Part shown: in pieces, positions 3,662 through 55,285 of the stretch
Layout of the letters: each line of letters opens with the position of its first letter
How positions within the stretch are numbered: position 1 is the first letter of the stretch
NCBI GenBank assembly: GCA_964510585.1
Contig: CAZECW010000004.1
Coordinates: 3,606 to 67,605, forward strand
Length of the DNA stretch: 64,000 nt
Direction of reading: 5' to 3'
From: an uncultured archaeon
GTDB lineage: Archaea > Asgardarchaeota > Jordiarchaeia > Jordiarchaeales > Jordiarchaeaceae
Notes under the pieces: generated by a model
The model's database searches: none
What the model was told of the DNA's origin: nothing
Seen by the model: only the letters and a program-made list of their open reading frames with translations
Made by a program: the position numbers and the translations under genes

Positions 3662-6600
3662 GTGATTGAAATGGAAAATAGGAAAAAGGCATCAGCAATA
3701 CTCATAATTTGCGTAATACTCTTCCTTACTACAGCCCTCATAGTTACCAACACAATACCTCTAACACTACCTCCCAGTCAGAATAATTCCCTACAACTGA
3801 AGGAAAACGGAACTTATGCAACAATCCAAATAAATGGAATATATTACAATGTAACTTGGTTTGAAATAAGCAATGAAATCATAAATCAAACAATCGAGAA
3901 CAGCGTCGTAGGCACAAATACTTACTATCTTAACATCACTTGGAACAATTATGTTAATCGTTCAGTTGTCATGTCCTTCAACACCACAAATGATACAATA
4001 TACTTCAATGGTGTCCAACTATACATAGGGTATAATAATTCTCCACCAGCCTTGAGGGTGGAGCTAAGAAACGGAACCCAACAGAACTCAAAATGGGTAC
4101 CAAGCAACGAAACAATACTATATGAGGAATATAGCATTGACAATTTTACACAAGAGGCAAATTGGGCTACTTTGCTAAATGAGACATCTATACTACTTGT
4201 TCCATCACACACTTATTTCTTACTGCTCAGGTTGAATGAAACCACAGGTGATGATAATAGTAGTTATTATTATTGGCGGTGTACTCCAGACACAGGTGAT
4301 GATAGTGATGGTGTCGATGAAGGAATTGCCCTCGCCTTGGAATTTGAAGATGTAAGTGATTTAAATAACTCTGCTTTTTGGGCTGACTGCGCTGATGATT
4401 ATGATTGCTGGATGATTATGAATTTCACAAAGCTTCAATATACCCTAAGCCTACAGCTCCCTGTGAATTGGACGCTGAGTTATCTCATGGTGGATGTTTT
4501 TAACAGCACTGGATCCTTCTTTTACCACATTTCGAATAGTATTTCGGGAAACATTACTGGGGGTACGGGAAGCTTCAACGTTACTCTGCCCGATGGCGAT
4601 AGAATGTGTCTTGCAGTTATAAAATTTACAGAGATACGTCCAGTTTCATGGTTAACTGTAATTGAGGGTACTAGGAATTCTGATGGCTACGCACGAACCG
4701 TTGGAAACATGAGTGAAGCTCAAAGGTTCAGGTTGCCACATGACTCAAATAATCTCTCAATACAAATATTGATACGCAACACGGGTCTGAAGGAGAATCT
4801 CACAGCGGAGATATGGAATGCCACCTTCGTTGAATCAGTGGGGAGCTATAACCTAACTGGGAAAGTGGTTGATTTGGAGGTGCCATACTGGAACGTTACC
4901 TCAGACTATAATTGGCTAACACTCAACTTTGAAGGCTACTTCTCTGAAGGAGACTACTTTCTAGTAATACATACAAAAGATTGGGCGGGCGATCCAAGTA
5001 GCGGTCCATTTTATGATTGGGCAAGTCACACCAGCTTTTACGAGATTCCCCCATCGGAGGGCTACGAAATATGGACTTCAGAAAATAACCACAGCAATTG
5101 GAACTGGCAGGATATGCGAGATCCCTATGGTCACAGGTACTGGCACTGTATGAAGGTGGAGTCGTACAATTCAACAGACACAAGAAACATTAGCGTCTGG
5201 GTTAACGGTAAGCTGGTCGGTGACAATTGGGTGTGGAATGATACCGTTTGGATACCGGTACAAAAGACGCAGGGCGATAATGTTACCTTCACCCTAACAA
5301 GTAATATGGACTTTGAATACAGCTTAGACTATGATATTTATTACTATAATTATACCTATGATTTGAACAATGAAACACAATTCTATGTTAACGATTACCC
5401 TATGAGCAACAGCACCCAAGGCTATTTCACCCAGATCTTTACCAGCAGCCAGCTGGGATACAACAGTAGCACGGGACTGGTCGAACTGACTTTCAAGGCT
5501 TGGAACATAACCAGTAAAGAGTGGATAAGCACAAGCGTTAACGCCACAATAAGCGCCTCAATGTACTACATAGAAAACGTTTCGGTATCATCTGCAACGG
5601 AACTAAACTATACCTATGTACATAGCAGTGACGCTGCCATTTCTCTATCACAAGAATCCCTATACATCGACTACTCCAACCTAAATGTATACGCAGTTAA
5701 CACGGTTCAACTTAATGGAACAACCCTCCATGGCAACTGGACAGACAACACCCTAACCAATAAGATAACAGTACTCAAAAACGCATTTAACGACACACAA
5801 ATAGGACAAGAAATCTTGGCGGGGGACAATGTAACAATCACCGTAAACTTTTACTCTATAGTAAACATTGAATCCCCAACCCTACCCTACATTGGCGAGC
5901 AAGTCACACTAAACATTACAAATGTAGTCAACACGCCCGACTACTTGAACGTGACCATAATAAGACCCAATGGCACAATACAAACACTCAATGGAACCAA
6001 ACTAAATTATGAAAACTGGAGCGTTAATTTCACACCCGAAGAAACTGGCAAATACATCGCATCAATCACCACACAATCAACAGGCGGAAACATAATAAGA
6101 AGAGAAGTAGCAAATCGAAGCGTAGAAAAATACTACTATGTATTCACCGTGTATCAATTAGGCTTGGGACTAAATAAGCCCGACATTGTCGCCGAGGAAC
6201 CGCTAAGCCTAGGAATACCGTATAATTTGCAGATTTGGGTAAAATACTTACCCTTCAACTCCTCGGAAACCCCACAGGTTAATGTAAACAACATAATAGT
6301 TCTCCTGAATGGCAGTAAAACAATAAATGACCCAGTGTTCAATAGTTTAACGGGGTTCTGGGAGCTCACAATAATCTGGACCAGCCTCGGCAACCTAAAC
6401 ATCACAGTGAACGTTACTGATGATAACGGTAGAACTGTCGTCGAAACTTTCATAGTCCAAGTGGTCTACCCAAAACCACCCTCACCTATACCAATATTAT
6501 CATTAATGACAACATACGCAGCCATAGGTCAGTTTGATATAGACACACTGGCAAGAATCGCCACCATCGTATTCTGGCTACTAATAATAGTTCTCATCTT

Positions 6601-6664
6601 TATACGCGTCTTTTATCCAGACACTCTAATCAAAATCCACAAAAAACTACTGAGAAAAACATGA
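3662..6664 (+). CDS. Large secreted or surface (S-layer-like) glycoprotein with an N-terminal signal/anchor and a C-terminal TM anchor.
   Basis: 1000 aa. N-terminal hydrophobic segment ASAILIICVILFLTTALIV. About 55 N-x-S/T sequons. C-terminal hydrophobic helix IATIVFWLLIIVLIFI followed by a basic tail KIHKKLLRKT. Confidence 0.6.
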   Translation: MIEMENRKKASAILIICVILFLTTALIVTNTIPLTLPPSQNNSLQLKENGTYATIQINGIYYNVTWFEISNEIINQTIENSVVGTNTYYLNITWNNYVNRSVVMSFNTTNDTIYFNGVQLYIGYNNSPPALRVELRNGTQQNSKWVPSNETILYEEYSIDNFTQEANWATLLNETSILLVPSHTYFLLLRLNETTGDDNSSYYYWRCTPDTGDDSDGVDEGIALALEFEDVSDLNNSAFWADCADDYDCWMIMNFTKLQYTLSLQLPVNWTLSYLMVDVFNSTGSFFYHISNSISGNITGGTGSFNVTLPDGDRMCLAVIKFTEIRPVSWLTVIEGTRNSDGYARTVGNMSEAQRFRLPHDSNNLSIQILIRNTGLKENLTAEIWNATFVESVGSYNLTGKVVDLEVPYWNVTSDYNWLTLNFEGYFSEGDYFLVIHTKDWAGDPSSGPFYDWASHTSFYEIPPSEGYEIWTSENNHSNWNWQDMRDPYGHRYWHCMKVESYNSTDTRNISVWVNGKLVGDNWVWNDTVWIPVQKTQGDNVTFTLTSNMDFEYSLDYDIYYYNYTYDLNNETQFYVNDYPMSNSTQGYFTQIFTSSQLGYNSSTGLVELTFKAWNITSKEWISTSVNATISASMYYIENVSVSSATELNYTYVHSSDAAISLSQESLYIDYSNLNVYAVNTVQLNGTTLHGNWTDNTLTNKITVLKNAFNDTQIGQEILAGDNVTITVNFYSIVNIESPTLPYIGEQVTLNITNVVNTPDYLNVTIIRPNGTIQTLNGTKLNYENWSVNFTPEETGKYIASITTQSTGGNIIRREVANRSVEKYYYVFTVYQLGLGLNKPDIVAEEPLSLGIPYNLQIWVKYLPFNSSETPQVNVNNIIVLLNGSKTINDPVFNSLTGFWELTIIWTSLGNLNITVNVTDDNGRTVVETFIVQVVYPKPPSPIPILSLMTTYAAIGQFDIDTLARIATIVFWLLIIVLIFIRVFYPDTLIKIHKKLLRKT

Positions 6665-16344: not shown

Positions 16345-17715
16345 ATGGCACAAACACAAAAAGGAGATAAGTACGAAGTCAAAGACCTAAAACTAGCACC
16401 AGGCGGACGAGCAACAATCGAATGGGCAGAATCAAGAATGCCCGTACTTATGCAAATAAGAAAAAGATTCCAAAAAGAAAAACCACTCAAAAACACCATA
16501 GTAGGAGCATGCCTCCACGTAACAAAAGAAACAGCGGTACTTGCAAAAACTCTAAAAGCTGGAGGAGCAGAAGTCTACCTTTGCGCCTCAAATCCCCTAT
16601 CAACACAAGACCATGTAGCCGCGGCACTAGTAGAAGAAGGAATAAACACATTCGCTTGGAAAGGCATGGACTACGAAGGCTACTACCGAGCAATAGCCAA
16701 CGTTATTAAAGGAGAACCGAACATCACACTAGACGACGGCGCCGACCTAGTATCAACCCTAATCAAGCTAAAAAGAGGAGAAACTGGCGAGGAAATCAAA
16801 ATAGTCAAGAAAATTCTCGGAAGCCGTACAGACTGGGCGGACAAAGTATGGGCCGGAGCCGAAGAGACCACAACCGGCGTAATCCGCCTCAGAGCCATGG
16901 CAAAAGATAACGTGCTATTATACCCAATTATAGCTACAAATGATACCCCCACGAAATGGGAAACATAAACACCACCCGTGTTTAAGCCCAAATTTGACAA
17001 CTTGTGGGGAACTGGACAAAGCACCATAGACGGTATACTAAGAGCAACAGCAGACCTCATCGCGGGCAAAATTTTTGTAGTTGCAGGATACGGTCACTGC
17101 GGTAGGGGTGTAGCGCTAAGAGCAAAGGGACTAGGAGCGAGAAGAGTCATCATCTGTGAAATAAATCCCCACCGAGCACTAACAGCCGCCTTAGAGGGCA
17201 TGGAAGTAATGCCCATGAGCGAAGCCGCTGAGGTAGGAGACATTTTCGTAACCGCCACGGGATGCAAGAATGTTATAAATGCTGAACATATGAAAAAGAT
17301 GAAAAACGGGGCAGTAATGTGTAACACAGGCCACTTTAATGTGGAAATAAATATACCTGATTTGGAAAAAATAAGCGTCAGCAAGAGAGAAATAAGACCA
17401 CTAGTCGATGAGTACACACTGGAAGATGGAAGAAAAATCTATCTGCTCGCCCAAGGCAGGCTCGTGAATCTTGCATGTGCCGAAGGACACCCAAGCGAAG
17501 TTATGGACATGAGCTTTTCGGATCAGGCTTTGGCTGTGGAGTGGATTGTTAAGAATAAGGATAAGCTGTCTGGGATGGGTAGTGTGGTTTTGGATATTCC
17601 TGAGGAGATTGATAGGACTGTTGCAGAGTTGAAGTGTAAGGCTATGGGTCTTAGATTGGATGTTTTGACCCCAGAACAGGAAGCGTATTTGTCAGGTTGG
17701 GCTGAAGGAACCTAG
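16345..17715 (+). CDS. ahcY: Adenosylhomocysteinase (S-adenosyl-L-homocysteine hydrolase), interrupted by an in-frame TAA at 16966-16968 inside a 30-nt insertion.
   Basis: Colinear with SAHH throughout: EETTTGV, the NAD-binding [18 protein letters not shown]. Where archaeal enzymes read TKYLFDN, this sequence reads [16 protein letters not shown]. Both halves are in the same frame. Confidence 0.85.
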
Positions 17716-18384: not shown

Positions 18385-19503
18385 ATGGATACTGAAGAAA
18401 AGGTTCAGCGTGTCTTACGTGGCTTGAGTGAAGTTATCACTGTCGAGGATCTACGGAATTTATTTGAGGTAGACAACCACCCTAAGGCTTACATAGGTGT
18501 TGAGCCTTCTGGATAAACCTTTTAGGCTTTCTAGGGTTCCAGAATATTTCATTTGGGCTGGGTGGTTTGGGCTTGGAAGGTTCAGGATTTGATTCTTTGC
18601 GATGTGGATATGCATGTTCTCGAAGCAACTTGGCATGCGAAGATTAACGACAAATTTGGTGGAAACATGAATACCATACACACCTGTGCAAAGTACATTG
18701 AACACTGTTTACAAGCGTTGGGTGTAGATATTAGCAGGGTTCATTTTCCAAAGGCTGAGGATCTTATGGATAGTTTGGATTATTGGGCGACAGTGATAAA
18801 CATTGCTAAAAACACTACGCTGGCCCGCATTAAGAGAGCTATGAGCATAATGGGCCGCAAAGTAGATGATGCGGAATCTGATTATTCAAAAACACTTTAT
18901 CCTTGCATACAGGTAGCTGACATCTTATACGCCGGTTTTAAGCTGTGTCTGGGCGGAACCGACCAGAGAAGAGCTCACATATTGGCGAGGGAGTTGGCTC
19001 CTAAGTTCGGCTTGGATTGGAAGCCGGTAGCTATTCACACACCTCTCCTCATAGGCCTAGAGGGATTATCAAGGATGGAGTTTGAGGATATGAGCGAGGA
19101 TGTTTTAATGGAGGCCAAGATGTCGAAATCCAAACCTCAAACAGCAATTTTTATACATGATAAGCCAGAGGAAATTAGGAGTAAAATTTCTGCTGCTTTT
19201 TGCCCACCGAAACAGGTAGAATTCAATCCAATAATGGAAATAAATAGGCTTCTTCTCTTTTCCAGAGAAGGTTTTACTCTTCATGTAGAACGTGAGGAAA
19301 AATTTGGAGGAGATATAGATTTTGAGAGCTTTGATGAATTGAAATCTGCTTACAGCGCCGGTAATCTTCATCCTCTGGACTTGAAACGGGCTACTGCGGA
19401 GGCCCTCATTGAACTGTTGAAAAATGTTAGGCAACATTTTGAAAAGAATAGTGAAGCCCGTAACCTTTTGGAAACATTAAAAAAGGCTACAGTAACCCGG
19501 TGA
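18385..19503 (+). CDS. tyrS: Tyrosyl-tRNA synthetase (archaeal/eukaryal type), interrupted after the EPSG motif by a 30-nt insertion carrying three in-frame stops (TAA, TAG, TAG).
   Basis: The N-terminus (…AYIGVEPSG) and the downstream ORF (…HLGW…KMSKS…) are in the same frame and colinear with M. jannaschii TyrRS. 10 extra codons sit between EPSG and HLG. Confidence 0.8.
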
Positions 19504-25374: not shown

Positions 25375-26406
25375 TCATTTCCTCAGCACTATAATTTGGC
25401 GTGTTAAACTCTTGTGTACCGGTATCAAATGTTTTTCTATTATTCGAAAACTTGTTCCCAAAATAGATTCGTCAACATTGACTGTTAAGGGGGTGCCCAT
25501 ACAGATGTATCCTGCTGAACTAGATAGTTTATCTAATTCCTGTAAGAAGAATTCAATTAGTTTTTCGGGGCGGACGCCTTTGGTGGAGGCCGATCCTCCG
25601 TAGGGTGGATCCGTTGCTATGCTGTCAAATTGGTTGAGGGGGAGGTGTTTGGCGTCTGAAAGTATAATGTTCCAGTTGACTATGTTGAAGTGTAGGAGAT
25701 TCCTTTTTGCACCTTTAACCATTTTTTTGTCTATGTCGGAACCTATGGTTTTGCAACCCATGAGGCCCGCCTCAATTAGAAGACCTCCTGCTCCACAGAA
25801 TGGATCCAAGAAGACTCCTTTGGGTCGAGCTCGAGAGAGATTAACCATAGCTCTGGCGAGATGGGGATTCATGGAACTGGGAATAAAAAAAGGCCTGAAT
25901 TTTGCCTTCCTGAGACCTAAAGCTTTCCTTTCGGATTCCCTGACACTTATCCCAAACAGGAATATGTCTTCCGTTAAAACGCCATAAAATAACTTGTCAG
26001 GATTTTCAAGATTGGCCCTTGCCCCCACCCTCCTATGAATGAGGGCGCCAATTTCTTTTTCTAAAAGAAGTGAGCTCACTTCCGGTGAATAATTTTTTAT
26101 GCGTTTCACTCTAACGGCAAAGGTTTCTTTGGCTGAGATGTGTTTCTGAAAATCTACGTCTCGAAGTGAAGCCATTATCTGGTTGAAGTCTGCTTCACAT
26201 TTAAGCAGTGAAATGCAGCATCTATGAACCATTGCGGCACGCTCAGCTATTCTTTGGCAACTCTCCTCCTCTGCTTTCAAAAGTAGTACTTGGTCATATT
26301 TTTCTGCTTTGTAGTCCATGTTCAGGCTTTCAAGGATTGCTAAGCACTCAGCAGCAGCTATTGTTTTGGTTTCTCCAGATAGAATGTAAAAATGGTTTTT
26401 AATCAC
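25375..26406 (-). CDS. THUMP-domain tRNA (guanine-N2)-methyltransferase (Trm11/TrmG10-like).
   Basis: N-terminal ferredoxin-like/THUMP region. SAM-binding motif DPFCGAGGLLIEAG. Catalytic DPPYG. Confidence 0.7.
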   Translation of the reverse strand: MIKNHFYILSGETKTIAAAECLAILESLNMDYKAEKYDQVLLLKAEEESCQRIAERAAMVHRCCISLLKCEADFNQIMASLRDVDFQKHISAKETFAVRVKRIKNYSPEVSSLLLEKEIGALIHRRVGARANLENPDKLFYGVLTEDIFLFGISVRESERKALGLRKAKFRPFFIPSSMNPHLARAMVNLSRARPKGVFLDPFCGAGGLLIEAGLMGCKTIGSDIDKKMVKGAKRNLLHFNIVNWNIILSDAKHLPLNQFDSIATDPPYGGSASTKGVRPEKLIEFFLQELDKLSSSAGYICMGTPLTVNVDESILGTSFRIIEKHLIPVHKSLTRQIIVLRK

Positions 26407-27290
26407 TCTTTTAACGCCTCAGCGATAATAGGAGCTACGGACACTAAGCTAACATCGCTAGGAACTGTGTCGGTTGCAATTATTTCAGTTACTCCTGCAT
26501 TAAGAATCCTAAACCGGGAGTCCCCCACCAAGATGGCGTGAGTGCATGCGGCATAAATTTTAGCGGCGCCTTGATTTTTGGCAATTTCGATGGCTTTAAC
26601 CATGGTTCCGCCAGTACTGATAATGTCATCCACTACGACCACATCGCGGTTGATGACATCAATTTCTCTACTCTTGGTTTCGATTTCACCTGTGTGTTTA
26701 TCTCTAAACTTGCTGAGAACCACATATTCAGCGCCTAAAAATTCTGCAAGACTTTTAGCCCTATTCATAGCTCCTTCGTCTGGGGAGATAATGACAGGTT
26801 TCGTCAGTTTATACTTGTTTAAGTATTCGCCCAGAAGGGGAATAGCGCTTAAGTCTCTTACGGGAATACTGAGATAATCAAAAAGTCTCTTGTTATGAAT
26901 ATCGACTGTTAGTATTTCGTCGGCTCCCGCATTCTGAATTATTTTACAAATTATTTTTCCACTCACCGCTTCGCCGGGAAGAAATCTTTTGTCTTGGCGG
27001 GCGTAAGCAAAATAGGGAATAACTGCGGTAACCTTTGATACACCCAATTCTTTTAGAGTTTCAATTATGAAACAGAGCTCAACTATACCTTGATCAGGGT
27101 TCGGGGGTATCGTGGATTGAACCACAATAGCGTGGCGGTTTTTTGGCTCCTCTTTAATTCTAATGTATTTCTCGCCGTCTGGGAAGGTCTTAAACTCAAT
27201 GGGAATAGCTCCACATTTTAAACATCTAGAGATACGCAGACCCAAGAGTTGCGAACTAGGACCAGGCACTACTACTTTTTCGAGCAACAT
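26403..27290 (-). CDS. prs: Ribose-phosphate pyrophosphokinase (PRPP synthetase), copy 1.
   Basis: PRPP-binding loop VVVVDDIISTGGTM, typical N-terminal domain, 295 aa. Confidence 0.9.
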   Translation of the reverse strand: MLLEKVVVPGPSSQLLGLRISRCLKCGAIPIEFKTFPDGEKYIRIKEEPKNRHAIVVQSTIPPNPDQGIVELCFIIETLKELGVSKVTAVIPYFAYARQDKRFLPGEAVSGKIICKIIQNAGADEILTVDIHNKRLFDYLSIPVRDLSAIPLLGEYLNKYKLTKPVIISPDEGAMNRAKSLAEFLGAEYVVLSKFRDKHTGEIETKSREIDVINRDVVVVDDIISTGGTMVKAIEIAKNQGAAKIYAACTHAILVGDSRFRILNAGVTEIIATDTVPSDVSLVSVAPIIAEALKE

Positions 27291-28568: not shown

Positions 28569-29718
28569 TTAGGATACTGGGCGCCAGATAATTCCTAGTT
28601 CATCCGCAGTTTTATATGCTTCCTCCATTTCATCGCTAGTCACTCTTCTACATATATCTGCATATTCCTTCCTTCTTGGTACCTCGTGTGTTGGGTGATA
28701 CTGTTCCATTATGTTAACTAAAGCTTTAGGACAATTTTTAGCCACCCATTCAAGCACTGGTTTGGTGCAACATTCAACGTGTCCCGGTAAAACTAGGTGC
28801 CTTATTATCATACCAGATGTTCCAGGTTCCACGGTCTCATCATAGGCCATCTTGTGATTTCTTGAAACGACTTCCCAGTAGTTAGAAACTTTACTCAACC
28901 TCTCCGCGCATTGATTATTTCCATATTTAAAGTCGGGGAGCCAGAAATCCATAACGTCCAGTAAAAGCTTCATACATTCTTTGGAACAGTACATGTTAGA
29001 ATTCCATAGTTGCACAATGTTTGTTTTAGTTTCCCTGATGCCTTTTAAAATGTTGTAGGTGTTTGGAGTTGGATCTCCACCCACATAATTTATGTTTCTT
29101 GCACCTTCCCTCTTTAGATCTCTTGAGATTCGTGCAAGGCTCTCACCCGAAGTTTCTATACCGTTTTTTGGATTTGTGGAAATGTCATAGTTCTGACAAA
29201 ACACGCATTTAAAAGTGCAACTGGAGAAGAAGAATGCACCGCAAGAGCCTTAACTCTTAAGCGTTTGTGCCTGAAGGAACTAGAGGGGCCTCTTCCCCTG
29301 TATGTATGAATGCTGAGGATACGTAAGACTCGCTACCCAGTTTACAAAATCCTTTTTCACCCTCCAGTCTATTAGCTCCACACCGTCTTTCACAGAAATG
29401 ACACTGTGATAGAATCCTTCTTGCTAGTTCCACCTTAACATCCAAATAAGAAATCTTTGGCGAATCCATGTTTCCCAGTTCCAGTTCACCTGCATCAATC
29501 CGCCTCAAGACACTTCTAAAAACACCACTTATTCTATCATGTTCATCCCAAAGCTTGCCCAGCTCCGCATCTAGCTCCACATCTACACCTACTTTTAAAG
29601 CTATCATAAACTTAGCATAAAGCCTATCATTGAATACCTCATAGTACCTCCAAAGCCTCTCACGAACTATACCGTTATCCCAAACACGGTAAGCATCTGG
29701 GCGAATTAGTTTCCACAT
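28569..29718 (-). CDS. PflX-like radical SAM protein, split into two ORFs by a roughly 13-nt stop-containing insertion just upstream of the CxxxCxxC motif.
   Basis: The upstream ORF ends …HTGEEAPLVPSGTNA*. The downstream frame reads GSCGAFFFSSCTFKCVFCQNYDIS (radical-SAM cluster). The frames differ by +1. The stop in each frame lies beyond that of the other, so the two cannot be joined by a single indel. Confidence 0.6.
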
Positions 29719-37610: not shown

Positions 37611-38029
37611 TACTCCTCCTCCTTCTCCTCGATCTTAGACATGGGAACAGAGTAGATGGCACTTATGTATATTTCAGCATTACAAGCTTTGCAAGCCCCA
37701 ATTTTTTTGAAAACGTAGTCACCCTTATGGAAATCTCTAACCTCCCTATAATCACAACCATAACATTTCAAAACTGTCACAGTCTTATATTCCACGGCAG
37801 GCTTGGAGCGGGAAAACAATATCATAGGATAAACCGCAATAAGAAACGCGAAAAAAGCGTATAGCAATCTCTGATTCCTAACACCCGTAAACAAGTCCCA
37901 AAAAAGATCACTCAGCGAAGGATTAAAGTAAAGATATAGTATGTACACACCAACGGCTGCGACTCCCGCCGAGAACGCAAATAAAGCCAAATTGAATATC
38001 CTTCTCCTTCTCTGCGACACAACAATCAC
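37607..38029 (-). CDS. Hypothetical membrane protein with a C-terminal CxxC…CxxC zinc-ribbon.
   Basis: Two TM helices, then CYGCDY…CKACN. Confidence 0.35.
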   Translation of the reverse strand: MIVVSQRRRRIFNLALFAFSAGVAAVGVYILYLYFNPSLSDLFWDLFTGVRNQRLLYAFFAFLIAVYPMILFSRSKPAVEYKTVTVLKCYGCDYREVRDFHKGDYVFKKIGACKACNAEIYISAIYSVPMSKIEEKEEEY

Positions 38030-38035
38030 CCAATT

Positions 38036-39187
38036 TTAACCTATACCTATACAGTTACCTATTCCCGCAACAATAACCGTGTCACCGGGCTTGGTGCGTT
38101 CAAGAATCATGTTTTTTACACGCTCAGCAGCTTTATAGGCCCCATCATAAATTTCTTTTTTCATAGGCGTCAAAGCTTCCTCAATAGACATTTTAATTAT
38201 AACTGCATCCACAGGAACCTTCTGACTCGTTACCTCCTGCTCTATCTTAAACTTGTCAACACCCGGCCCACCAATAGCAGCCCCGACGCCCTCCACCACT
38301 TTACCAGTCTTCTCACCTTCAAATTTCAACCCGGCGTCAATCATAATAACTCTAGCAATTTTTCCGTTAGCTTCCTTAATAAGGTTAACAATAGCGTCAC
38401 CTGGCTTTCCAACTCGCCCTCCCGGGCCGATGGCTCTCACAATTAATACATTTCTACCCTCGAAAGTTATGGGAGTTAAGGAAATGTCTTCAGCAATTTC
38501 ACTGGACTCAGCGTTCCCATCCTTCACAAATTCATTTTTGAAAATAGAAGCAACAAGAGCGCCAGCACCGTCACCTATAGGCTGACCCTCATTAAAAGCC
38601 TTCAAAGCATTGTAATAGGCCTTAGCATACTTCATAATAAATGACAACGCAACCTGAATACTCACAATCATGGCATAATTATTAGTCTCCTTACCCATAT
38701 AGTAGAAGTGCCTAATAACCAGAAACATCTGACGCAAAGCCATAGCAGCCTCAAAAGTCATATCAATATTAGCCCTCTGATCACGATCAGCCGCAGGCGC
38801 CAACTTAGCAATAAGATCATCAAACCTAGACTTCCTCACATCAAGCAGATGTTCAAGCCTCTTAAAAACACCTGAAGGATCACGCTCCACAGGCTCAATC
38901 AAAACAAACTCCATATAATCCTCCACAATAGGTGTAGGATCCTTCTCCGGCTTACCCAACTCCCTAATCATCCTAATAGTAGTCTTTTTAGCCTCCTCAG
39001 ACCACTTCTCAAGCTGAGTTATAACCTCTCGAATCTGTGCCAAATACTGCATACTCTGAACTTTCAAAATTAGACCACTGAAAATCATAAATATAAAGAA
39101 GACAAATATCAGAATATTCATGATGAGAATGTATGGATCAGAATAGCCAAACGGCAACTGCAGTGAGGGAAACAACATAACCATCAC
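38036..39187 (-). CDS. Conserved archaeal membrane-anchored protein (DUF1512-like).
   Basis: N-terminal TM helix, then a soluble domain of about 330 aa with glycine-rich loops (IGPGGRVGKPGD, GAAIGGPGVD). Confidence 0.4.
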   Translation of the reverse strand: MMVMLFPSLQLPFGYSDPYILIMNILIFVFFIFMIFSGLILKVQSMQYLAQIREVITQLEKWSEEAKKTTIRMIRELGKPEKDPTPIVEDYMEFVLIEPVERDPSGVFKRLEHLLDVRKSRFDDLIAKLAPAADRDQRANIDMTFEAAMALRQMFLVIRHFYYMGKETNNYAMIVSIQVALSFIMKYAKAYYNALKAFNEGQPIGDGAGALVASIFKNEFVKDGNAESSEIAEDISLTPITFEGRNVLIVRAIGPGGRVGKPGDAIVNLIKEANGKIARVIMIDAGLKFEGEKTGKVVEGVGAAIGGPGVDKFKIEQEVTSQKVPVDAVIIKMSIEEALTPMKKEIYDGAYKAAERVKNMILERTKPGDTVIVAGIGNCIGIG

Positions 39188-39665: not shown

Positions 39666-40550
39666 TTAGGTTAAAGCTTTGGCTAGGGTTCCTGCTATTT
39701 CTACGACGGATATCGGTGAGGGAATGGTGGTTGTTCCAATAACGGTGTAGGCTCCGGCGGTGTATATTTTTTTGAGGGCATTGTCTACAAGTAAGGGGTG
39801 GGTGCACGCGGCGACTATTTTTTTTGCGCCTTTCTTTTTGAGGGTTTCGATGGTTTTTGCTATTGTTCCTCCTGTGGAGATGATGTCATCTATTATTACT
39901 ACGTCCCTGTTTTTTACTTCTAGTTCTCTGGTTGTTATTTCGACTTCTGTGGAGCTAATTCTCTTTTTTTCCAGAACGTCGTATTCTGTTCCTAGTTGTT
40001 CTGCGGCGAGTTTGGCCCATTGTTCGGCTTCTTCATCGGGTCCTATGATTAGTGGTTTTTGTAGGGAAAGGTTTGCTCCTATGTAGTGTGCTATATCTGG
40101 AACCGCTGTGAGGTTTTTTGCGGGAATTTTGAATATTTTTCTCATATCGTCTACTCTGTGAAGGTGCATGTCGACTGTGAATATTTGGTCTGTTCCCACT
40201 GTTTCTATGAGTTTTGAAACGGTTTTGAGGCTTATTGCTTCTCCGGGGTTGAATCTTTTGTCTTGTCGTGCGTAGGCGAAGTATGGGATTACGCCTGTTA
40301 CCTTTTTTGCTCCTGAGTCTTTGAGTGCTTCAACCATTAGGAAGTATTCCATTAGGTATTCGTCGGGATTTAGATACATTGATTGCACTACTACGGCCTC
40401 GACGCCGTTGAGATCTCCTTCTATGCGGATATACTTTTCTCCGTCTGGAAATCTTTTGATTTCTGTCCCGAGGAGAGTAGCATCCAGTTCTCTTGCTATT
40501 TTTATCGCTAAAACATATGAGGAGGATCCGCCTATTATTACTTTATTCAT
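39666..40550 (-). CDS. prs: Ribose-phosphate pyrophosphokinase (PRPP synthetase), copy 2.
   Basis: VVIIDDIISTGGTI PRPP loop. Paralogous to 26403-27290. Confidence 0.85.
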   Translation of the reverse strand: MNKVIIGGSSSYVLAIKIARELDATLLGTEIKRFPDGEKYIRIEGDLNGVEAVVVQSMYLNPDEYLMEYFLMVEALKDSGAKKVTGVIPYFAYARQDKRFNPGEAISLKTVSKLIETVGTDQIFTVDMHLHRVDDMRKIFKIPAKNLTAVPDIAHYIGANLSLQKPLIIGPDEEAEQWAKLAAEQLGTEYDVLEKKRISSTEVEITTRELEVKNRDVVIIDDIISTGGTIAKTIETLKKKGAKKIVAACTHPLLVDNALKKIYTAGAYTVIGTTTIPSPISVVEIAGTLAKALT

Positions 40551-40727
40551 TATTATTCCCTCAAGGGTTGTTAATGGTTTAGATAAAATTTTTTATGGTT
40601 TAGTGGTGACCGTTTCCCTTGATAACTCAACGGTGGCAAAATAATTTTTCGGTTAATAAAGCTTTTGAAGAATTATGGTATAACTTAGAGAAATAAGGAT
40701 AACGTTTTTGGCTGGGAGGTTTACCTA

Positions 40728-41279
40728 TTGGCTTGGACGGTATGGATTTGTGGGCGTCCGGGTTCGGGTAAATCCACCATAGCCCGGGTGCTTGAGTCTC
40801 TTTTGGAAGAGAAGGGTATTCGCGCCCAAATCTTAAGTACCGATGTCCTCAGGAAGGTAGTTACGCCTGAGCCAACTTATAGTGAGGAGGAACGCAGAAT
40901 AGTTTATGCGACCTTGGTTTTCATTGCAAAGATTCTCAATCAAAATGGTGTTAATGTGATATTGGACGCGACGGCAAATCTTAAGGCTTACCGTGAGGTT
41001 GGAAGGAGGGAAATTGAGAACCTCATAATTGCCTATGTGGATTGCCCCTTAGAGATTTGTATGAAGAGGGAGGCAGAGAGGAAAGAAACTTATGGGGCCC
41101 CACGAGACATATATAAAAGGGGGTTGGCAGGAGAGAGCGCCACTGTTCCCGGCATAGGTGTGCCCTACGAGGTGCCTGAGAACCCGGACATTGTACTGGA
41201 CTCGGTAAAGTTTACAGCCCAGGAAAACGCTGAAAAAATTCTAAAGGTTATTCTTCAAAAATACTCTCAGAATATTTAA
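40728..41279 (+). CDS. P-loop kinase, adenylylsulfate-kinase/KTI12-like.
   Basis: GRPGSGKST Walker A, D in LDATAN. About 180 aa. Confidence 0.5.
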   Translation: MAWTVWICGRPGSGKSTIARVLESLLEEKGIRAQILSTDVLRKVVTPEPTYSEEERRIVYATLVFIAKILNQNGVNVILDATANLKAYREVGRREIENLIIAYVDCPLEICMKREAERKETYGAPRDIYKRGLAGESATVPGIGVPYEVPENPDIVLDSVKFTAQENAEKILKVILQKYSQNI

Positions 41280-41382
41280 CTCACACCCACTGTTTAAAAA
41301 TTATTAACTTCTGGGAGGATACCTACGACTCCTTTTTTGGAGTATAAAGTAGATAGGGGGGTGTGTTTATTGAATGTTGGGT

Positions 41383-42441
41383 TTATTCTAGAATCTGGTT
41401 GTCTAGTTTTCCATAATTTTTCTGGTATCTTGCCTTAAATTCTTCGATTGTGAATTTGTGATTTTGGGTTCCCTCATGTTCTACGGCGTATCCTCCACAC
41501 ACGGCTCCCATTTGGCATGCTATTTTTAGTTCTTCTATAGATAAATCTTCTAATCGGGGGTTAATTTTTGAAAGTCCAGAAAGTAGTCCGCCTCTGAAGG
41601 CGTCGCCTGCGCCTGTGGGGTCAACTAGTTTGGAAATTTTTACTGCTGGTATGTTGATTTGTTCATTGTTTAAGTAGATGGAGCAGCCGCGTTCACCGCG
41701 AGTAATGATTGTGGCATCTATAATGTCATCTAATTTCTTTTGCAGCTTGTTTTCAACCAGCCCTGCTTCGTAATCGTTAACTATGAGTATTGATGCCCCG
41801 CTAATAAATTTGTAGAGGTCCTCTGGCGCGAAATTGTAAATCATTTGACCTGGATCTGCGATGAATGGGACGCCTAGTTCTTTGAATTCTTTGGCGTGGC
41901 GGCACATTGTTCCTATGGGGTTGGGTGAAACTATGCCCAGTTCAACGTTTTTGTTTTTCACTATCTCTCTTATTTTTATGTTGCAAGTGTCTTGAAGGGC
42001 GCCTGTGTGAAAAATGGACATTTGGTCTCCTATTTTGCTCGTTACAATGTAGGCTTCAGCGGTGTCTTCCTCTTCGCACACCACTAATCCGCTTAAATCT
42101 ATTCCACATTTTTCCAAGTGTTTTTTGTAATCGCGACTAACGAAATCTTTCCCAACACAAGATATTGGAAGAGGATTACCATTGGTTAGTTTCATATTGT
42201 ACGCTATGTTTAGAGCGGTTCCGCCAAATGATACCTTCTTATTTACTAAGAAGGAAAAGCTGATTCGGGTGTCCCTGCCCCTTTTTTCAATGGCGTTTCT
42301 AAAAATTTCATCAAGAGTTTCTTCAGTAAACGCTATCACATCAAACGCCGCAGATCCCGAAATAGCAACCTTCTCCTTTTTCGGCAAGGTGGTCAGGCCT
42401 TCACTTCGTATTTCTTGAAAAACATTAAATTCTCTAAACAA
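41383..42441 (-). CDS. PfkB-family carbohydrate/nucleoside kinase.
   Basis: C-terminal PfkB signature DPTGAGDAFRGGLLSGL. Confidence 0.75.
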   Translation of the reverse strand: MFREFNVFQEIRSEGLTTLPKKEKVAISGSAAFDVIAFTEETLDEIFRNAIEKRGRDTRISFSFLVNKKVSFGGTALNIAYNMKLTNGNPLPISCVGKDFVSRDYKKHLEKCGIDLSGLVVCEEEDTAEAYIVTSKIGDQMSIFHTGALQDTCNIKIREIVKNKNVELGIVSPNPIGTMCRHAKEFKELGVPFIADPGQMIYNFAPEDLYKFISGASILIVNDYEAGLVENKLQKKLDDIIDATIITRGERGCSIYLNNEQINIPAVKISKLVDPTGAGDAFRGGLLSGLSKINPRLEDLSIEELKIACQMGAVCGGYAVEHEGTQNHKFTIEEFKARYQKNYGKLDNQILE

Positions 42442-42842
42442 ATTAAATAAGTAAATTTTATGGCATTTAGAATAAAAATATTTTCACACATTTATTGAAA
42501 AAAAGCAGTGGAAACCCTTGAATTTTTCAAAAGTTTTCATCACGCAAAACAATTCCGACAAGATAAGGACATAATTATTTACTTTCCATCATCCTCAATG
42601 AATATTTTCGTGTTTTGGCTTTTACATACATGAAAAACTTCTCGTACTTAGAGGGGAAGAGGGCACTGGAAACTCTGTAAAATCGTTGACGAGGAAAAAC
42701 AAGTTTAACGGAGAGCGCCAGCAATTACTGTATACTTCTTTTTTATGGTTTCAGGATTTCCCAAACAAATATTCTAAAATTGGAAAGTTTCTTTGGCTTA
42801 CTGAAATTGAGTAGAGAAATGAACTAAGGGGGGAAGTGGGGT

Positions 42843-43928
42843 TTAGGTTTTAAGGTACGAGTTTACTTCCTTGGGATCGAATATTTCGGTGTTTAAAACG
42901 TTATTTATGAAGTTGAATAGTTTAAGGCGTGTATCTTTACTTAAATCTGGATACCAGATGGGATTCGCTATTACGAGGCATCTCCAGGCGTAAAAGGGTT
43001 GGAGTACTTTGAGAATCTCTTCATCTTCCGTTTTTTCTAAGTAGTTATTGAAGAACAGATGGTAGAGTTTTTCGAATGGCCCTTCGAGTTTTCCGTATTT
43101 CAGTAAGCTGAAGAAGATGTAGTTTATGGTTAGAGCGGTGACATCGTCTGCTGCTTCTCCCCATTCTCCTCGGCTTCTGTCAAATACTGTTAAATCTGTT
43201 CCTTCCCTGAAAAAGATGTTCCAAGGGTGATAATCGCCGTGCTCCTGACACAATCTGTGAGTGTACTTCTTAAGCTTCCACCTCCAATCTATGCATTTCT
43301 TCTCTATTTCGCTGAGCTTCACTTGGTGGACGAGCTCAAAATCTGGGGGGTAAGAATCGGTTAATCCGAAAATGCATTCACCGTGGCCTATTAATTCTCT
43401 AATCCTTTTCACGTAGAGGTGGGGCTCATTCCTCTTTACAGAATGAATTTCCACTAGGTAATCGGATAACTTCTCTGCACGCTTCTCATCCAAGATTGTT
43501 AGGCTGCCTCTTTCAGAAATTTTTTCTAAATCAACCTTGTAAAGGGTTCCCTCAACGAACTCCACATTCATGAAAAACTCTTCAGCATCGCCAACCGAAA
43601 CAATACGGCCGTCACTCATAAAGGCTCCACAGTCAAGGGAGCGGACATGGAGAGGCAAACGATTATAGGTGGTGTGCGCTGTGAGAACCACGTGTGCCCT
43701 GTCGGGCATATATTCGTGTCCGAACTGTGAAGGCGCCACGGTTTCAATCAAGTACTTTTTTCTTGTGCCATTATACTCCACTTCTATCACGCGGTGAATG
43801 CCATATCCTGCCTTTTTCAACTTCGCCTTTTCTTCGCCGCCTAAACCACTAACGCTCACAATCTTTACTTTGGTGCCAAGTATTTGGCTGTAATATCTTT
43901 GGAGTTCGTCTTCCCTATAATAACTCAT
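42843..43928 (-). CDS. Aminoglycoside-phosphotransferase (APH)-fold kinase, possibly methylthioribose-kinase-like.
   Basis: HGDYHPWNIFF catalytic loop and FDRSRGEWGEAADDV metal-binding segment. Neighbours MTA-salvage genes. Confidence 0.5.
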   Translation of the reverse strand: MSYYREDELQRYYSQILGTKVKIVSVSGLGGEEKAKLKKAGYGIHRVIEVEYNGTRKKYLIETVAPSQFGHEYMPDRAHVVLTAHTTYNRLPLHVRSLDCGAFMSDGRIVSVGDAEEFFMNVEFVEGTLYKVDLEKISERGSLTILDEKRAEKLSDYLVEIHSVKRNEPHLYVKRIRELIGHGECIFGLTDSYPPDFELVHQVKLSEIEKKCIDWRWKLKKYTHRLCQEHGDYHPWNIFFREGTDLTVFDRSRGEWGEAADDVTALTINYIFFSLLKYGKLEGPFEKLYHLFFNNYLEKTEDEEILKVLQPFYAWRCLVIANPIWYPDLSKDTRLKLFNFINNVLNTEIFDPKEVNSYLKT

Positions 43929-44144
43929 TGAAGTTTAACCCCTCTTAGTAGGTTATGAAGTTCTTTCAATTAAATTGACAAAATTTATAGTTAAAAAAAC
44001 TTACTACTTTAATTGTCTTCCTAAAAAGGATTCCTTACTTCGAAAAATAAGGAAACACTCTGCATGTTTAAAACATAGATTTCTCAGAAACACATCGCAC
44101 ATTTTAATTCCTAAACCAGTTATTATTGTTGGAGAGGTTGTAAG

Positions 44145-45740
44145 TTGGATATTGTTATCAAGAACGCAAGAATTATTGATGGAACTGGAACCCCCCGGTT
44201 TAAAGGAGAGATTGGCATTACAGGAGAAAGAATAGTGGAGATAGACAAAGGCATATCTACCAGAGGGGATAGAATCATCGATGCTAAGGGTCTTATTGTA
44301 ACTCCTGGCTTTATTGATGCGCACACGCACTCAGATGCGACTTTATTAATGGAAAGAAGTGCGCTGAATTATATTAGTCAGGGTGTGACCACAAATGTTA
44401 TTGGAAACTGTGGCTTATCTGCAGCCCCATTAAATAAGAGAACTGTAAAAGACCTGCTTACACTTGTAGCGCCAGATTTTAAAGGGGATCCTACCGAGAT
44501 GTGGACCAGTTTTGGGGGATATCTTGACTTTTTGACATTTGTGAGTACAGCCATTAATGTTGTTCCACTTGTGGGGCATAACACCATCCGAATTGCTGTG
44601 ATGGGCATAGAGGAGAGAGATCCATCTGAAGATGAACTTGAAGAGATGAGGAGATTGACGGAACAGAGTATGAGGGAGGGGGCGTTTGGTCTATCAGCAG
44701 GTTTAATCTATGTACCCGGTATTTTCACCAGAAAAGAGGAGTTAATAGAGCTCTGTAAAGTAGTTTCCAGGTATGGGGGAATATTCACTATTCATATAAG
44801 AGGAGAGGGGGATACAGGAGTACAAGCCATAAAGGAAGCCATAGAAATAGCAAGAAGGGCGCAAGTGCCCTTAGAGATTTCTCACTTTAAATCAGAAGGG
44901 AAAAGAAACTGGGGGAAGGCTCAAGAGAGATTGAGGCTGATTGAGAGTGCCAGGAAAGAAGGTATCGATGTGACTGCTGATTTTTATCCTTATACTTTCG
45001 CTTTGACATTTTTGCATTCCCTTTTTCCGACTTGGATTTTCAGAGATGGTTTGGAAGCTGTACCTGAAAAATTGAAGAATCCAACTATTCGTGAACAATT
45101 GAGAGAGTATTTTAGGCTTGCTGGTGATGTTGTGGGAATCTCTGATGTGGAGGATTGGCGCACCGTTGTTCTATCTAATCCCAGTAACCCAAAGTATAAA
45201 GGTAAATCAGTATTGGAAATTGCGGGAGAACAGCGTAAGGATATAGTTGATACCGTTTGTGAACTAGTGCAGTCAGAGGGCTTATCGCTGGGAATTCTTC
45301 TGCTCTGGATGAGTGAGGAGGATGTTGATGTAATAGCAAAGCACCCGCTAATTATGGTGGGCTCCGATGGGGCTGTTGTTACTTCACCAAAAGAAATGAT
45401 TCACCCCCGATACTACGGCACTTTCACAAGAGTTTTAGGATACTATGTTCGGGAGAAAAAGCTTATGGGCCTTGAGGAAGCTGTACGAAAGATGACATCG
45501 TTACCAGCTCAGAGATTCGGACTAAAAGATAGAGGTGTCTTGAGGGAGGGAAACTATGCGGATTGTGTCATCTTTGACCCAGAAAGAGTGAAAGACTGTG
45601 CCACTATAGATGAGCCGAACAAGTTGTCTGAGGGAATAGAATATGTTATTGTTAATGGAACCGTGGTATTTGAACATGGAAAATTTGCGGGGAAGTATCC
45701 TGGCAAGATTCTGAGGAAAAAGGTAAAGGAGAATTGTTAA
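44145..45740 (+). CDS. N-acyl-D-amino-acid deacylase (D-aminoacylase) family amidohydrolase.
   Basis: IKNARIIDGTG…PGFIDAHTHSD metal-binding start. TTG start. 531 aa. Confidence 0.8.
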   Translation: MDIVIKNARIIDGTGTPRFKGEIGITGERIVEIDKGISTRGDRIIDAKGLIVTPGFIDAHTHSDATLLMERSALNYISQGVTTNVIGNCGLSAAPLNKRTVKDLLTLVAPDFKGDPTEMWTSFGGYLDFLTFVSTAINVVPLVGHNTIRIAVMGIEERDPSEDELEEMRRLTEQSMREGAFGLSAGLIYVPGIFTRKEELIELCKVVSRYGGIFTIHIRGEGDTGVQAIKEAIEIARRAQVPLEISHFKSEGKRNWGKAQERLRLIESARKEGIDVTADFYPYTFALTFLHSLFPTWIFRDGLEAVPEKLKNPTIREQLREYFRLAGDVVGISDVEDWRTVVLSNPSNPKYKGKSVLEIAGEQRKDIVDTVCELVQSEGLSLGILLLWMSEEDVDVIAKHPLIMVGSDGAVVTSPKEMIHPRYYGTFTRVLGYYVREKKLMGLEEAVRKMTSLPAQRFGLKDRGVLREGNYADCVIFDPERVKDCATIDEPNKLSEGIEYVIVNGTVVFEHGKFAGKYPGKILRKKVKENC

Positions 45741-45784
45741 AGGACAAATAGTGTAGAGGCAGCATTTATTTTTGGGGTGTTAGC

Positions 45785-46864
45785 ATGAAGGTTAAGATAA
45801 ATGGAAAAGTTATGGAGTACCGCAATGTCTGGATGGAAAACGGCGTTGTTAACATGATTGACCAAACAAGGTTACCTTTCGAGTTTAGAATACAAAAAAC
45901 AAAAAATTACAGGGAAACTGCCGAAGCAATACGAAAAATGCAAATAAGGGGAGCCCCAGCAATCGGTGTAGCGGCATCATACGGATTAGTACAAGCTGCC
46001 CTAGAATTCAAAAATTTAGAGCCGAAGGAGTTCTGGAGAAAAATGGAAGAGGTTGCCCAAGAGTTTCTCAACACCCGCCCCACAGCCGTAGATCTACATA
46101 ACATGATGGAAAGGATGATGACGAGGATAAAAAAGGCGGGGAGCCCCCAACAATGCCTGCAAATTGCACTTAGTGAATCTCAGCTGATAGCGGAAGAAAA
46201 CGCTGAAGCATGTAAGAAGATTGGGCTCCTGGGCAGAGACTTAATTAAGGATGGGGACGGGGTGCTAACACACTGTAATACTGGCGCCCTAGGCACGGTC
46301 GATTATGGCACAGCTATAAGCATAATAAAGTTCGCTCACTATCAGGGTAAGAAATTCATTGTACTGGCAACTGAAACCAGGCCTTGGCTGCAGGGACGCC
46401 TAACTGATTGGGAGCTAACACAGGAAGACATTGAGCACTACATTATAGCGGATTCGGCTGCGGGGTACTATATGGATAAGGGGGATGTCCAAATTGTGTT
46501 GGTTGGCGCTGACAGAATACTGCCAAACGGCGACGTTATAAACAAGATTGGTACACGCACACTGGCAGTACTGGCACATGAAAACAATATTCCCTTCGTA
46601 GTGGCTGCACCAACAACCTCAATAGATCTTTTTCCAAAGGCTGAAAACATTAAGATAGAAGAGAGAGACACCAAGGAAATAACCCACATAAAGGGGTATA
46701 ATGAGGAAACAAAGGAGTTACAAACATTAAGACTCTACTTAACAGACTGGGTAAAGAACCCCGTATTTGATATAACTCCTGCAAAATATATTTCCAAAAT
46801 AGTTACCGAAAACCAGATCATTGAACCACCATACGATCTTAAAACGCAGCTCAAAAATGAATAA
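45785..46864 (+). CDS. eIF-2B alpha/beta/delta-like protein: S-methyl-5-thioribose-1-phosphate / ribose-1,5-bisphosphate isomerase (MtnA/e2b2 family).
   Basis: N-terminal …IDQTRLPFEF…GAPAIGVAASYGL and C-terminal GADRI…NGDVINKIGT are the family hallmarks. Confidence 0.8.
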   Translation: MKVKINGKVMEYRNVWMENGVVNMIDQTRLPFEFRIQKTKNYRETAEAIRKMQIRGAPAIGVAASYGLVQAALEFKNLEPKEFWRKMEEVAQEFLNTRPTAVDLHNMMERMMTRIKKAGSPQQCLQIALSESQLIAEENAEACKKIGLLGRDLIKDGDGVLTHCNTGALGTVDYGTAISIIKFAHYQGKKFIVLATETRPWLQGRLTDWELTQEDIEHYIIADSAAGYYMDKGDVQIVLVGADRILPNGDVINKIGTRTLAVLAHENNIPFVVAAPTTSIDLFPKAENIKIEERDTKEITHIKGYNEETKELQTLRLYLTDWVKNPVFDITPAKYISKIVTENQIIEPPYDLKTQLKNE

Positions 46865-47427
46865 TCACTAACAAGAATTAGTTCCAATTAAGATTAGTAT
46901 TGATAGAAGAAGCGGGAGTAAAATTACTCAGAAGGCTCCTCCCATTATTTTTTTCTGCTACATTTAGAGGCTGTGGCAGGTTTCAACTTAAACATACACT
47001 TTTTAAAGCAATAGCCTGAAAAATGAAAATTATAAGCGGTGCCCCTACCAAGAAAAAGGGGAATGGTGAGCTAGTAAGGTTGAGTAAAAGATAACATTTT
47101 TTCATGGTGGAAACGTGGCAATTTTTGAAGAATACGAGAGTTGAGATGGGGACTTACAAAGGACAATTAAAAGAAGCTAGAATTTGTATAAGAAAAAATT
47201 AAAACCAGAAGGAGGCAGAGTAATTAAGCTAAAGCCAAATATTCCCAGGAGTAAAGTAAACTAGTCTTGATAGAAAAAAGATTGTAAAACTAATCTTCCA
47301 ATTCGGAAAGTCTATTGCTTGAGTTTTAAAAAATAATTAATATTATAAATGTGTAAATCCCAAAGAATTAAAACAAAAATAGAAAAAGTTGCCTGAAAAC
47401 AAGCAATAATAATAGGAGGATATCCAG

Positions 47428-48282: not shown

Positions 48283-48756
48283 TAAGATAAATATTGTAAA
48301 GAGCTCCTTTCCCCAAATTACTTAGATTTATTTTTAAAACATACACCTTTTTAGAAAACGGCTGTTTTAAATATGGTTCAGCAATTAAGCCAATGGTTTA
48401 CAGAATCGTTGGCGAGATAGGTCCCCGATTTTTGGGAGGACGCCAAAATTTGATGATTCTCTAGTTTCCCGGTTAACGACTAATTCTTGACCTTACAAGA
48501 ATGTTGAATAGAAAGGCTCTCAACTTTAGTCGCAGTGGGTGTCAACTTTTTCAAGATGTAATTTTCGGCGCTCATCTGCTTACATAGGACTTAATCATTT
48601 TAATATTATTTTTGTATATTTGTTATGGTTTTATTATATTTATTTTTTATAATACATATTGTTATTGTCTTTTTCCTTTTATAATTTTTTGACAAAGGTT
48701 TAAAGCTATGGATGGCTAATAGGTAACTACACATAATATCTGAGAGGTGTATCTTT

Positions 48757-49812: not shown

Positions 49813-49843
49813 AAAGGCAATCTCACTCCCCTAGCAGGGGCTT

Positions 49844-51493: not shown

Positions 51494-51532
51494 TTATTCG
51501 ATAAAACGATTATTCTATTTGGAATAAATTTT

Positions 51533-52897: not shown

Positions 52898-52958
52898 TCA
52901 ATTCTCCTCCACATAAATAAAAACCTAAACCAGTTGGGATTTATCTTTTTTCTAATTT

Positions 52959-53294: not shown

Positions 53295-53365
53295 CCTGCT
53301 TCATCATACTTATCTCAAGAAGCATCAAGTGGTCTTGGTCTCCTCCTCCATTTGTTTGGTGCTTT

Positions 53366-53707: not shown

Positions 53708-53936
53708 TTATGGAATTTACATAGTACAACAGTGAACTAACATTAAATTGTTTCGCATCCAAATCATGTTTTCCTCACCAACCAAAATACTCAAAATCCA
53801 ATGTGGGAATATCACCTAGCTAAAGTAGGTTTTAAGTTTGAAAAAAGATTTATAGCCCCTAGAAAACATTGGGAACTCTGATATTCTACTTGGCGATTCG
53901 ATTCATCAAAATCCTAAAAATATAGTTGGTGTCTTT

Positions 53937-55244: not shown

Positions 55245-55285
55245 TTCTCTGACATGTTTTCAGGAGACTTTGGTCATTTCTTCTG

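Follow-up and report, generated by a model that had tools for sequence, protein, structure and literature searches.

How can an archaeon make tyrosyl-tRNA synthetase (TyrRS) from a tyrS gene that is interrupted by stop codons in its HIGH region? The question is raised by a stretch of DNA from an uncultured Asgard archaeon of the class Jordarchaeia (assembly GCA_964510585.1, contig CAZECW010000004.1), whose 64,000 nucleotides (nt) are referred to below as the window and are numbered from its first letter. Our reading is that the gene is not broken, and that 30 nt at 18515-18544 represent an archaeal bulge-helix-bulge (BHB) intron, of the kind normal in archaeal tRNAs, lying within the tyrS messenger RNA (mRNA). 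Judged from sequence comparison, we put the probability of this at about 0.88.

The interruption can be read directly from the DNA. As the initial annotation had described, tyrS lies in two pieces in the same frame with three in-frame stops between them. The N-terminal open reading frame (ORF), MDTEEK...AYIGVEPSG, stops at TAA (18514-18516), and TAG codons follow in frame at 18523-18525 and 18532-18534. The downstream ORF, ...SRIFHLGW...KMSKS..., continues in that frame to TGA at 19501-19503 and is recognised as tRNA-synt_1b in a Pfam scan. The 7-bp inverted repeat said to enclose the insert is also present, TTCTGGA (18507-18513) and TCCAGAA (18538-18544) being exact reverse complements, and both the ACC/GGT inner pair and the 3-nt 5' bulge that had been pointed out are seen in the minimum free energy (MFE) fold of the insert. 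By itself, the energy of this hairpin is unremarkable (z = 0.16 for a segment of 76 nt and z = -1.9 for one of 45 nt).

The boundaries of the insert were examined with a BHB scan of tyrS that covered all frame-restoring excisions. A single solution retains both EPSG and HLGW, namely removal of 18515-18544, giving the junction ...GGA U/UA UUU CAU... (a slash marks a splice site here and below). In this solution each strand of the 4-bp central helix is followed on its 3' side by a 3-nt bulge, as in the canonical BHB motif. The removal of some 30 nt proposed initially is thus upheld, but the interval is most likely this one and not TAA...AGA at 18514-18543: excising the latter gives EPSG-IFHLGW, with isoleucine at the junction, whereas excising 18515-18544 gives EPSG-L-FHLGW. 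In an alignment of 10 intact archaeal TyrRS the consensus is EPSGLFHIGW, with Leu44 and Trp49 invariant. Since Leu44 is invariant, the predicted tyrS junction recreates an invariant residue. The same alignment dissolves a puzzle, the HLGW motif having been regarded as an anomaly that needed explanation; because the tryptophan is invariant in intact archaeal TyrRS, where HIGW and HLGW are usual, there is nothing to explain. At the RNA level the predicted spliced junction is CCUUCUGGAU joined to UAUUUCAU, that is, ...CUGGAU joined to UAUUUCAU. The corresponding junction peptide would be AYIGVEPSGLFHLGWVVWAWK, and detection of the peptide EPSGSRIFHLGW would be at odds with BHB splicing.

The intron is shared by relatives of the window's source. 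A protein database search with the conceptually joined TyrRS as query returned closest matches (79-100% identity) that are all N-truncated, at 302-336 aa (11 of 11), whereas remoter homologues have about 360 aa; one match is named Candidatus Freyarchaeota. We compared contigs of relatives taken from NCBI, ENA, JGI and Logan (loci L001-L014) and scanned one genome per GTDB species. An insert at the same tyrS site was found in independent assemblies and in all five Jordarchaeia/Freyarchaeia species representatives, including the complete curated chromosome CP147778.1, while in Heimdall-, Hermod- and Baldrarchaeota, as in other archaea, EPSGLFH is continuous.

Seven distinct tyrS insert sequences were recovered, of either 30 or 31 nt (31 nt in L001, L003, L005 and L008), and the number of stops within them varies, being lower in 31-nt inserts of relatives than in the window. 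With two lengths in play, the halves of tyrS lie in different genomic frames in several species and the insert cannot be translated. The multiple-of-3 length and the three stops, which had seemed telling features of the window's copy, are therefore incidental. Despite the differing genomic frames, the predicted splice restores the tyrS frame in every variant. The central helix CUGG/CCAG (4/4 Watson-Crick pairs) and the bulges are invariant over the seven variants, save that position 2 of bulge 1 is U or C (C in L001/L002 and L008/L014), so that the split codon reads UUA or CUA, both of which encode leucine. All helix cells of tyrS are paired in 7/7 variants; sliding the partners lowers this share to 20-55%. 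The apical stem varies among the variants in sequence and length, and a hairpin is still possible in each. Exon 1 (43 codons) is intact and free of lesions in all seven, and its differences fall mainly at third codon positions (16-21, compared with 4-8 at the first and second); this bias indicates that exon 1 is under purifying selection as coding sequence.

Two further genes in the window have the same arrangement (Table 1). The first, ahcY (S-adenosylhomocysteine hydrolase, 16345-17715), adjoins tyrS and is likewise split in frame; its putative intron holds one in-frame TAA, and annotators report two fragments, one of 207 aa and one of about 245 aa. Predicted splicing yields TK-WE-FDN, which aligns without gaps over the junction with PDB 7r39 and 7o5l. 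In relatives this intron measures 28 nt (L002) or 27 nt (L008). The second, a minus-strand radical-SAM gene (28569-29718), is split with a +1 frame change directly upstream of its CxxxCxxC motif. Its predicted spliced product, HTGEEAPLVPSGT-I-FFSSCTFKCVFCQN (SGT-I-FFSSC), is a gap-free match to the consensus of intact Asgard homologues, the MFE fold of the site itself contains the central helix H, a 3-nt bulge and the inner stem h', and the intron is 28 nt long in L009. The predicted spliced junctions of these two genes are AAAUGGGAA joined to UUUGACAAC and UCAGGCACAA joined to UCUUCUUCUCC. A 13-nt perfect hairpin, CUUAAGAGUUAAG, was considered as the radical-SAM insert and rejected: its removal restores the frame but not the consensus, whereas removal of the 31-nt BHB intron gives SGTIFF.

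Table 1. Predicted exons, introns and splicing elements of the three split genes in the window. A slash within a bulge marks the predicted cut.
Feature	Positions	Strand	Details
tyrS exon 1	18385..18514	+	from ATG 18385; MDTEEK...AYIGVEPSG and the U of the split Leu codon
tyrS central helix, 5' strand (H5) CUGG, in exon 1	18509..18512	+	pairs with 18539-18542
tyrS bulge 1, AU/A	18513..18515	+	predicted 5' cut 18514/18515
tyrS putative BHB intron, 30 nt, AAACCUUUUAGGCUUUCUAGGGUUCCAGAA	18515..18544	+	BHB scan; removal yields invariant Leu44
tyrS inner stem-loop h'	18516..18538	+	AACCUU (18516-18521) pairs with AGGGUU (18533-18538), 6 bp; apical part variable
tyrS central helix, 3' strand (H3) CCAG, in intron	18539..18542	+	BHB scan
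tyrS bulge 2, AA/U	18543..18545	+	predicted 3' cut 18544/18545
tyrS exon 2	18545..19503	+	UA of the Leu codon, then FHLGW...KMSKS..., TGA stop
ahcY exon 1	16345..16962	+	homology
ahcY putative BHB intron, 30 nt	16963..16992	+	H UGGG 16957-16960 / CCCA 16987-16990; bulges AA/A and AA/U
ahcY exon 2	16993..17715	+	homology
Radical-SAM exon 1 (PflX-like 'pyruvate formate lyase activating enzyme' family)	29265..29718	-	homology
Radical-SAM putative BHB intron, 31 nt	29234..29264	-	H GCAC 29270-29267 / GUGC 29239-29236; bulges AA/A and AU/U
Radical-SAM exon 2, FFSSCTFKCVFCQN...	28569..29233	-	homology

A fourth case allows the cut rule to be checked without any structural assumption. The ahcY gene of L002 carries an extra 31-nt insert, not found in the window, whose ends are fixed by DNA alignment alone: ...GGCCAC/ACACC...GGGCUCA/CCUUCG.... 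Here GGCC, standing before the last two exon bases, pairs with GGCU, standing before the last two intron bases, leaving 3-nt bulges AC/A and CA/C, and in both cases the boundary comes directly after the second base of the bulge. This insert is a model-independent calibration of the BHB cut rule. It corresponds to a second ahcY BHB intron of 31 nt between GH and PSEVMD, which we observed in L001/L002 and which is absent from the window, L008/L014 and L010-L012. In Freyarchaeia-1 (L013) a different and apparently longer sequence occurs near the same site, just upstream of VMDMSF, where the locus ends. This distribution suggests recent gain and loss of introns.

Random placements in the window give a fully paired (4/4) central helix in 2.1% of cases; the junctions fixed by protein or DNA alignment have one in 4/4. 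When the junctions were slid by up to 12 nt, just one other 4/4 placement arose, all four cases taken together. Across the introns the inner stem h' is strong (6 bp in tyrS, 7-9 bp in the ahcY relatives) and the outer helix h has just 1-3 bp.

Several observations count against a BHB intron in tyrS and have to be set beside this evidence. The outer helix h of tyrS consists of the U18508-A18546 pair only. In the MFE fold, A18543 and A18544 pair with U18508 and U18507, which places the 3' cut at the end of the 7-bp helix with no closed bulge. Given a cut at a helix end and a 1-bp h, the motif must be of the relaxed HBh' type and would require a permissive endonuclease. The predicted register and the MFE register are isoenergetic, as the bulge may be either AUA or UAA, and one of them alone gives a functional product. 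Stringent BHB-like motifs number 604 and 626 on the two strands of the window, against about 450 in shuffles; they are frequent by chance, and the motif alone therefore proves nothing. No double-sided compensatory change was found in the core helices among the seven tyrS variants, and because these helices hardly vary the shuffle control is uninformative. Finally, Pfam scans found no EndA or RtcB gene in the 64-kb window.

Two other structural assignments were considered and rejected. The helix register of the initial annotation (7-bp helix with a UAA bulge), combined with the canonical cut, yields either GGA-UA/A... with a stop or a 17-nt intron that leaves the product out of frame. A mirror-image BHB geometry, with the bulges 5' of the helix strands, seemed to suit ahcY and failed for tyrS, and it was dropped because the pre-tRNA 37/38 rule showed that it has the wrong handedness.

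Window-wide BHB scans (316 frame-joining matches) disclosed no further convincing intron, and a Pfam scan of the window's large ORFs revealed no other obviously split gene. One BHB-like motif on the minus strand (38010-38048, 39 nt, H CUGU/GCAG, 7-bp inner stem) covers both the stop of a DUF1512 gene and the beginning of the ORF after it, and splicing there would fuse the two. It is probably a chance match, because the Pfam match of the DUF1512 gene is already complete.

One competing explanation is translational bypassing of the type described for phage T4 gene 60 and the Magnusiomyces 'byp' elements, in which ribosomes would take off at GGA (18511-18513) with UAA in the A site, land at GGU (18535-18537) and resume at UCC. 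The tyrS site does resemble gene 60 (PMC5462505; bioRxiv 10.1101/2022.08.31.505936), with a GGA-stop at the foot of a hairpin, a short non-coding gap and an essential gene: in the window GGA is followed directly by UAA where the hairpin starts, and GGU, a glycine codon in the downstream frame, is kept in all variants. The gap, however, is 30-31 nt and not 50 nt, no second GGA stands upstream of the HIGH motif to act as a matched landing site, and relatives do not all keep the stop that follows GGA, the codon being CAA in L001/L002 and L008/L014 (two species). Bypassing would yield EPSG-SR-IFHLGW, which exceeds every intact homologue by two residues and lacks the invariant leucine. The other inserts fit no better, as the would-be landing codon of L002 ahcY is GUG rather than a lysine codon, and the insert found only in L002 has neither a stop after the take-off codon nor an in-frame matching landing codon. 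Bypassing, one of the two mechanisms offered by the initial annotation, is thus hardly credible, and the other, a BHB intron removed by the tRNA-splicing endonuclease, is the one we retain, with a different helix register and different boundaries.

It is also very unlikely that tyrS is a pseudogene, or that its insert is an assembly or sequencing artefact, with TyrRS activity supplied by another copy. The stops do interrupt the gene, and annotators call just the C-terminal part of 302-336 aa. Conservation of the split gene throughout the class Jordarchaeia nevertheless bears out the initial view that it is not decaying, as do the unblemished exon 1 with its third-position substitution bias and the conserved structure shared by the seven variants. 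An artefact would have had to recur at one site in independent NCBI, ENA, JGI and Logan assemblies, among them a manually curated, long-read-validated complete genome (PMC11291895). A second tyrS, which had been named as a reason to doubt the gene, was looked for: a pattern scan, which a divergent second copy could escape, gave one tyrS locus per Jordarchaeia species representative. An intron-less allele was sought in the metagenome collection and none was found; a query with the spliced junction GARCCYTCTGGAYTATTTCAY, which would match complementary DNA or an intron-less allele, produced only 8 unrelated chance matches in JGI metagenome contigs. Equally little speaks for a TyrRS made as two polypeptides or for recoding of the in-frame stops as selenocysteine (Sec) or pyrrolysine (Pyl), and we consider both most improbable. 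Stop-codon recoding has been described for Jordarchaeia (PMC9723677), and in the window the insert is in frame, but in several relatives read-through of a 31-nt insert would shift the frame, and the stops include UAA, which is not a Sec or Pyl codon. As to a split protein, the interval from the last stop to the histidine codon of HLGW contains no ATG, GTG or TTG, and a separately initiated C-terminal piece would therefore lack the nearly invariant His46.

If the inserts are BHB introns, their removal can be pictured in familiar terms. The tRNA-splicing endonuclease would cut after the second base of each tyrS bulge, which is the geometry expected from the 37/38 site of pre-tRNAs. An RtcB-type ligase would then join ...GGA-U to UA-UUU-CAU..., creating a UUA leucine codon and a continuous TyrRS, ...AYIGVEPSG-L-FHLGW.... 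The ahcY and radical-SAM genes would be repaired by the same mechanism. The archaeal tRNA-intron BHB motif is a four-base-pair helix with two flanking three-nucleotide bulges (PMC7714728, PMC5829648). Relaxed HBh' motifs are reported to be cut only by the (alpha-beta)2 and epsilon2 forms of EndA, and the Asgard enzyme is an (alpha-beta)2 EndA with an L1 loop (PMC5829648); the enzyme acting here would be of this form and would be expected to tolerate a relaxed motif such as that of tyrS.

The closest precedent is the intron of the cbf5 pre-mRNA in Desulfurococcales and Sulfolobales (Watanabe et al. 2002; Yokobori et al. 2009, PMC2738675). That gene was likewise annotated as split or frameshifted; its crenarchaeal BHB intron is cut by a hetero-oligomeric tRNA-splicing endonuclease, the exons are religated, and, as seems to be the case here, the intron has been gained and lost between related lineages. 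The present hosts are different, namely tyrS, ahcY and a radical-SAM gene in an Asgard class rather than in Crenarchaeota. In 2009 no other gene had been confirmed (PMC2738675), and in 2020 one mRNA was still cited, together with one new Haloferax substrate (PMC7714728), so that confirmed archaeal mRNA introns are so far almost limited to cbf5. Against this case, for years the sole confirmed one, stand three genes in one 64-kb window, for which splicing is predicted. Our literature search, which was incomplete, turned up no description of BHB introns in Asgard protein-coding genes, and a prior report is possible.

A second point of comparison is provided by archaeal tRNA introns. In Freyarchaeia and Atabeyarchaeia 92-95% of tRNA genes are interrupted by introns, in many cases by more than one and at non-canonical positions (PMC11291895), and the tRNA introns of the complete Freyarchaeia-1 and Atabeyarchaeia genomes number 228; the main text of that paper covers tRNA introns only and does not mention mRNA introns, and the paper describing Jordarchaeia does not mention introns (PMC9723677). 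These introns, and those of Thermoproteales tRNAs, have the same motif, a similar small size and presumably the same enzymes as the inserts described here and, like ours, include relaxed HBh' motifs that need a broad-specificity EndA; those of Freyarchaeia and Atabeyarchaeia additionally come from the same lineage. The substrate here is an mRNA, unlike in the tRNA case, and splicing must therefore restore a reading frame and compete with translation. ARAGORN and Rfam searches of the 64 kb and of the related loci L001-L014 were negative for tRNAs and for known RNA families; standard finders may miss tRNAs in this lineage, because nearly all of its tRNA genes are reported to carry multiple non-canonical introns.

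Eukaryotes offer a more distant parallel in HAC1/XBP1 mRNA splicing, which uses the IRE1 endonuclease and the RtcB or Trl1 ligase and in which removal of the 26-nt XBP1 intron changes the reading frame. There too the cuts are made by a protein endonuclease at two small mRNA structures, the ends are rejoined by a tRNA ligase and the intron is tiny. The systems differ in that IRE1 reads paired 7-nt loops rather than a BHB and the process is regulated by stress; no homology of the cis-elements is implied.

How widely such introns have spread in the lineage is a separate question. Three of about 58 window genes (about 5%) carry one, in addition to lineage-specific extras such as the second ahcY intron. 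The BHB introns with which the lineage's tRNA genes are saturated probably spread to give the mRNA introns, for which we infer no function beyond persistence. On the broader proposal, that introns of about 30 nt have spread genome-wide from tRNA genes to protein-coding genes in Jordarchaeia/Freyarchaeia and favour the most conserved motifs, we are evenly divided. The four insertion sites all fall within the best-conserved motifs of their proteins, EPSG/LFH in the HIGH region of TyrRS, TK..FDN and GH/PSEVMD in AhcY, and SGT/IFF next to the Fe-S motif of the radical-SAM protein. Inteins and homing introns prefer sites in a similar way; the pattern is typical of mobile elements and may in part reflect a bias of detection. 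If genome-wide spread were correct, a frequency of about 5% of genes would extrapolate to more than 100 introns per genome, these would be the first prokaryotes with routine, essential pre-mRNA splicing, and close relatives of eukaryotes would face the problem of keeping ribosomes off unspliced transcripts.

To judge from these genes, this relative of eukaryotes seems to splice mRNAs as a matter of routine. An essential aminoacyl-tRNA synthetase that would rely on the tRNA-splicing machinery, together with two further cases within 13 kb, suggests that mRNA splicing by protein enzymes can become common in an archaeon. Such Asgard cases bear on how split genes, and splicing apart from translation, could be tolerated at a stage when no nucleus existed. 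There is also a practical consequence. In the public Jordarchaeia genomes that we looked at, tyrS, ahcY and the radical-SAM gene are all called truncated or split, and such calls distort completeness estimates, marker-gene phylogenies and metabolic reconstructions of a lineage that is used to study the origin of eukaryotes.

Other features of the window are recorded here in their own right. A DDE transposase gene (DDE_Tnp_1_6, 62336-63313, minus strand) is followed by ORFs at 62011-62376 and 61442-61894 that are small and lack a family match; this region, close to the window's end, is probably an insertion sequence. Two large ORFs, at 3662-6664 (plus strand, 1000 aa) and 42843-43928 (minus strand, 361 aa), have no Pfam family at E <= 1e-5. 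Genes of a nucleoside and ribose-phosphate salvage type are clustered at 39666-57745, comprising two IF-2B-family isomerase paralogues, two PfkB kinases, a PNP/UDP phosphorylase, an APS-kinase-like protein and two amidohydrolases. The window contains two phosphoribosyl pyrophosphate (PRPP) synthetases, one within this cluster (39666-40550) and one at 26403-27290. A protein of the EAP30/Vps36 (ESCRT-II) family, encoded at 421-1155 on the plus strand, provides a eukaryote-like signature that fits the Asgard origin of the DNA.

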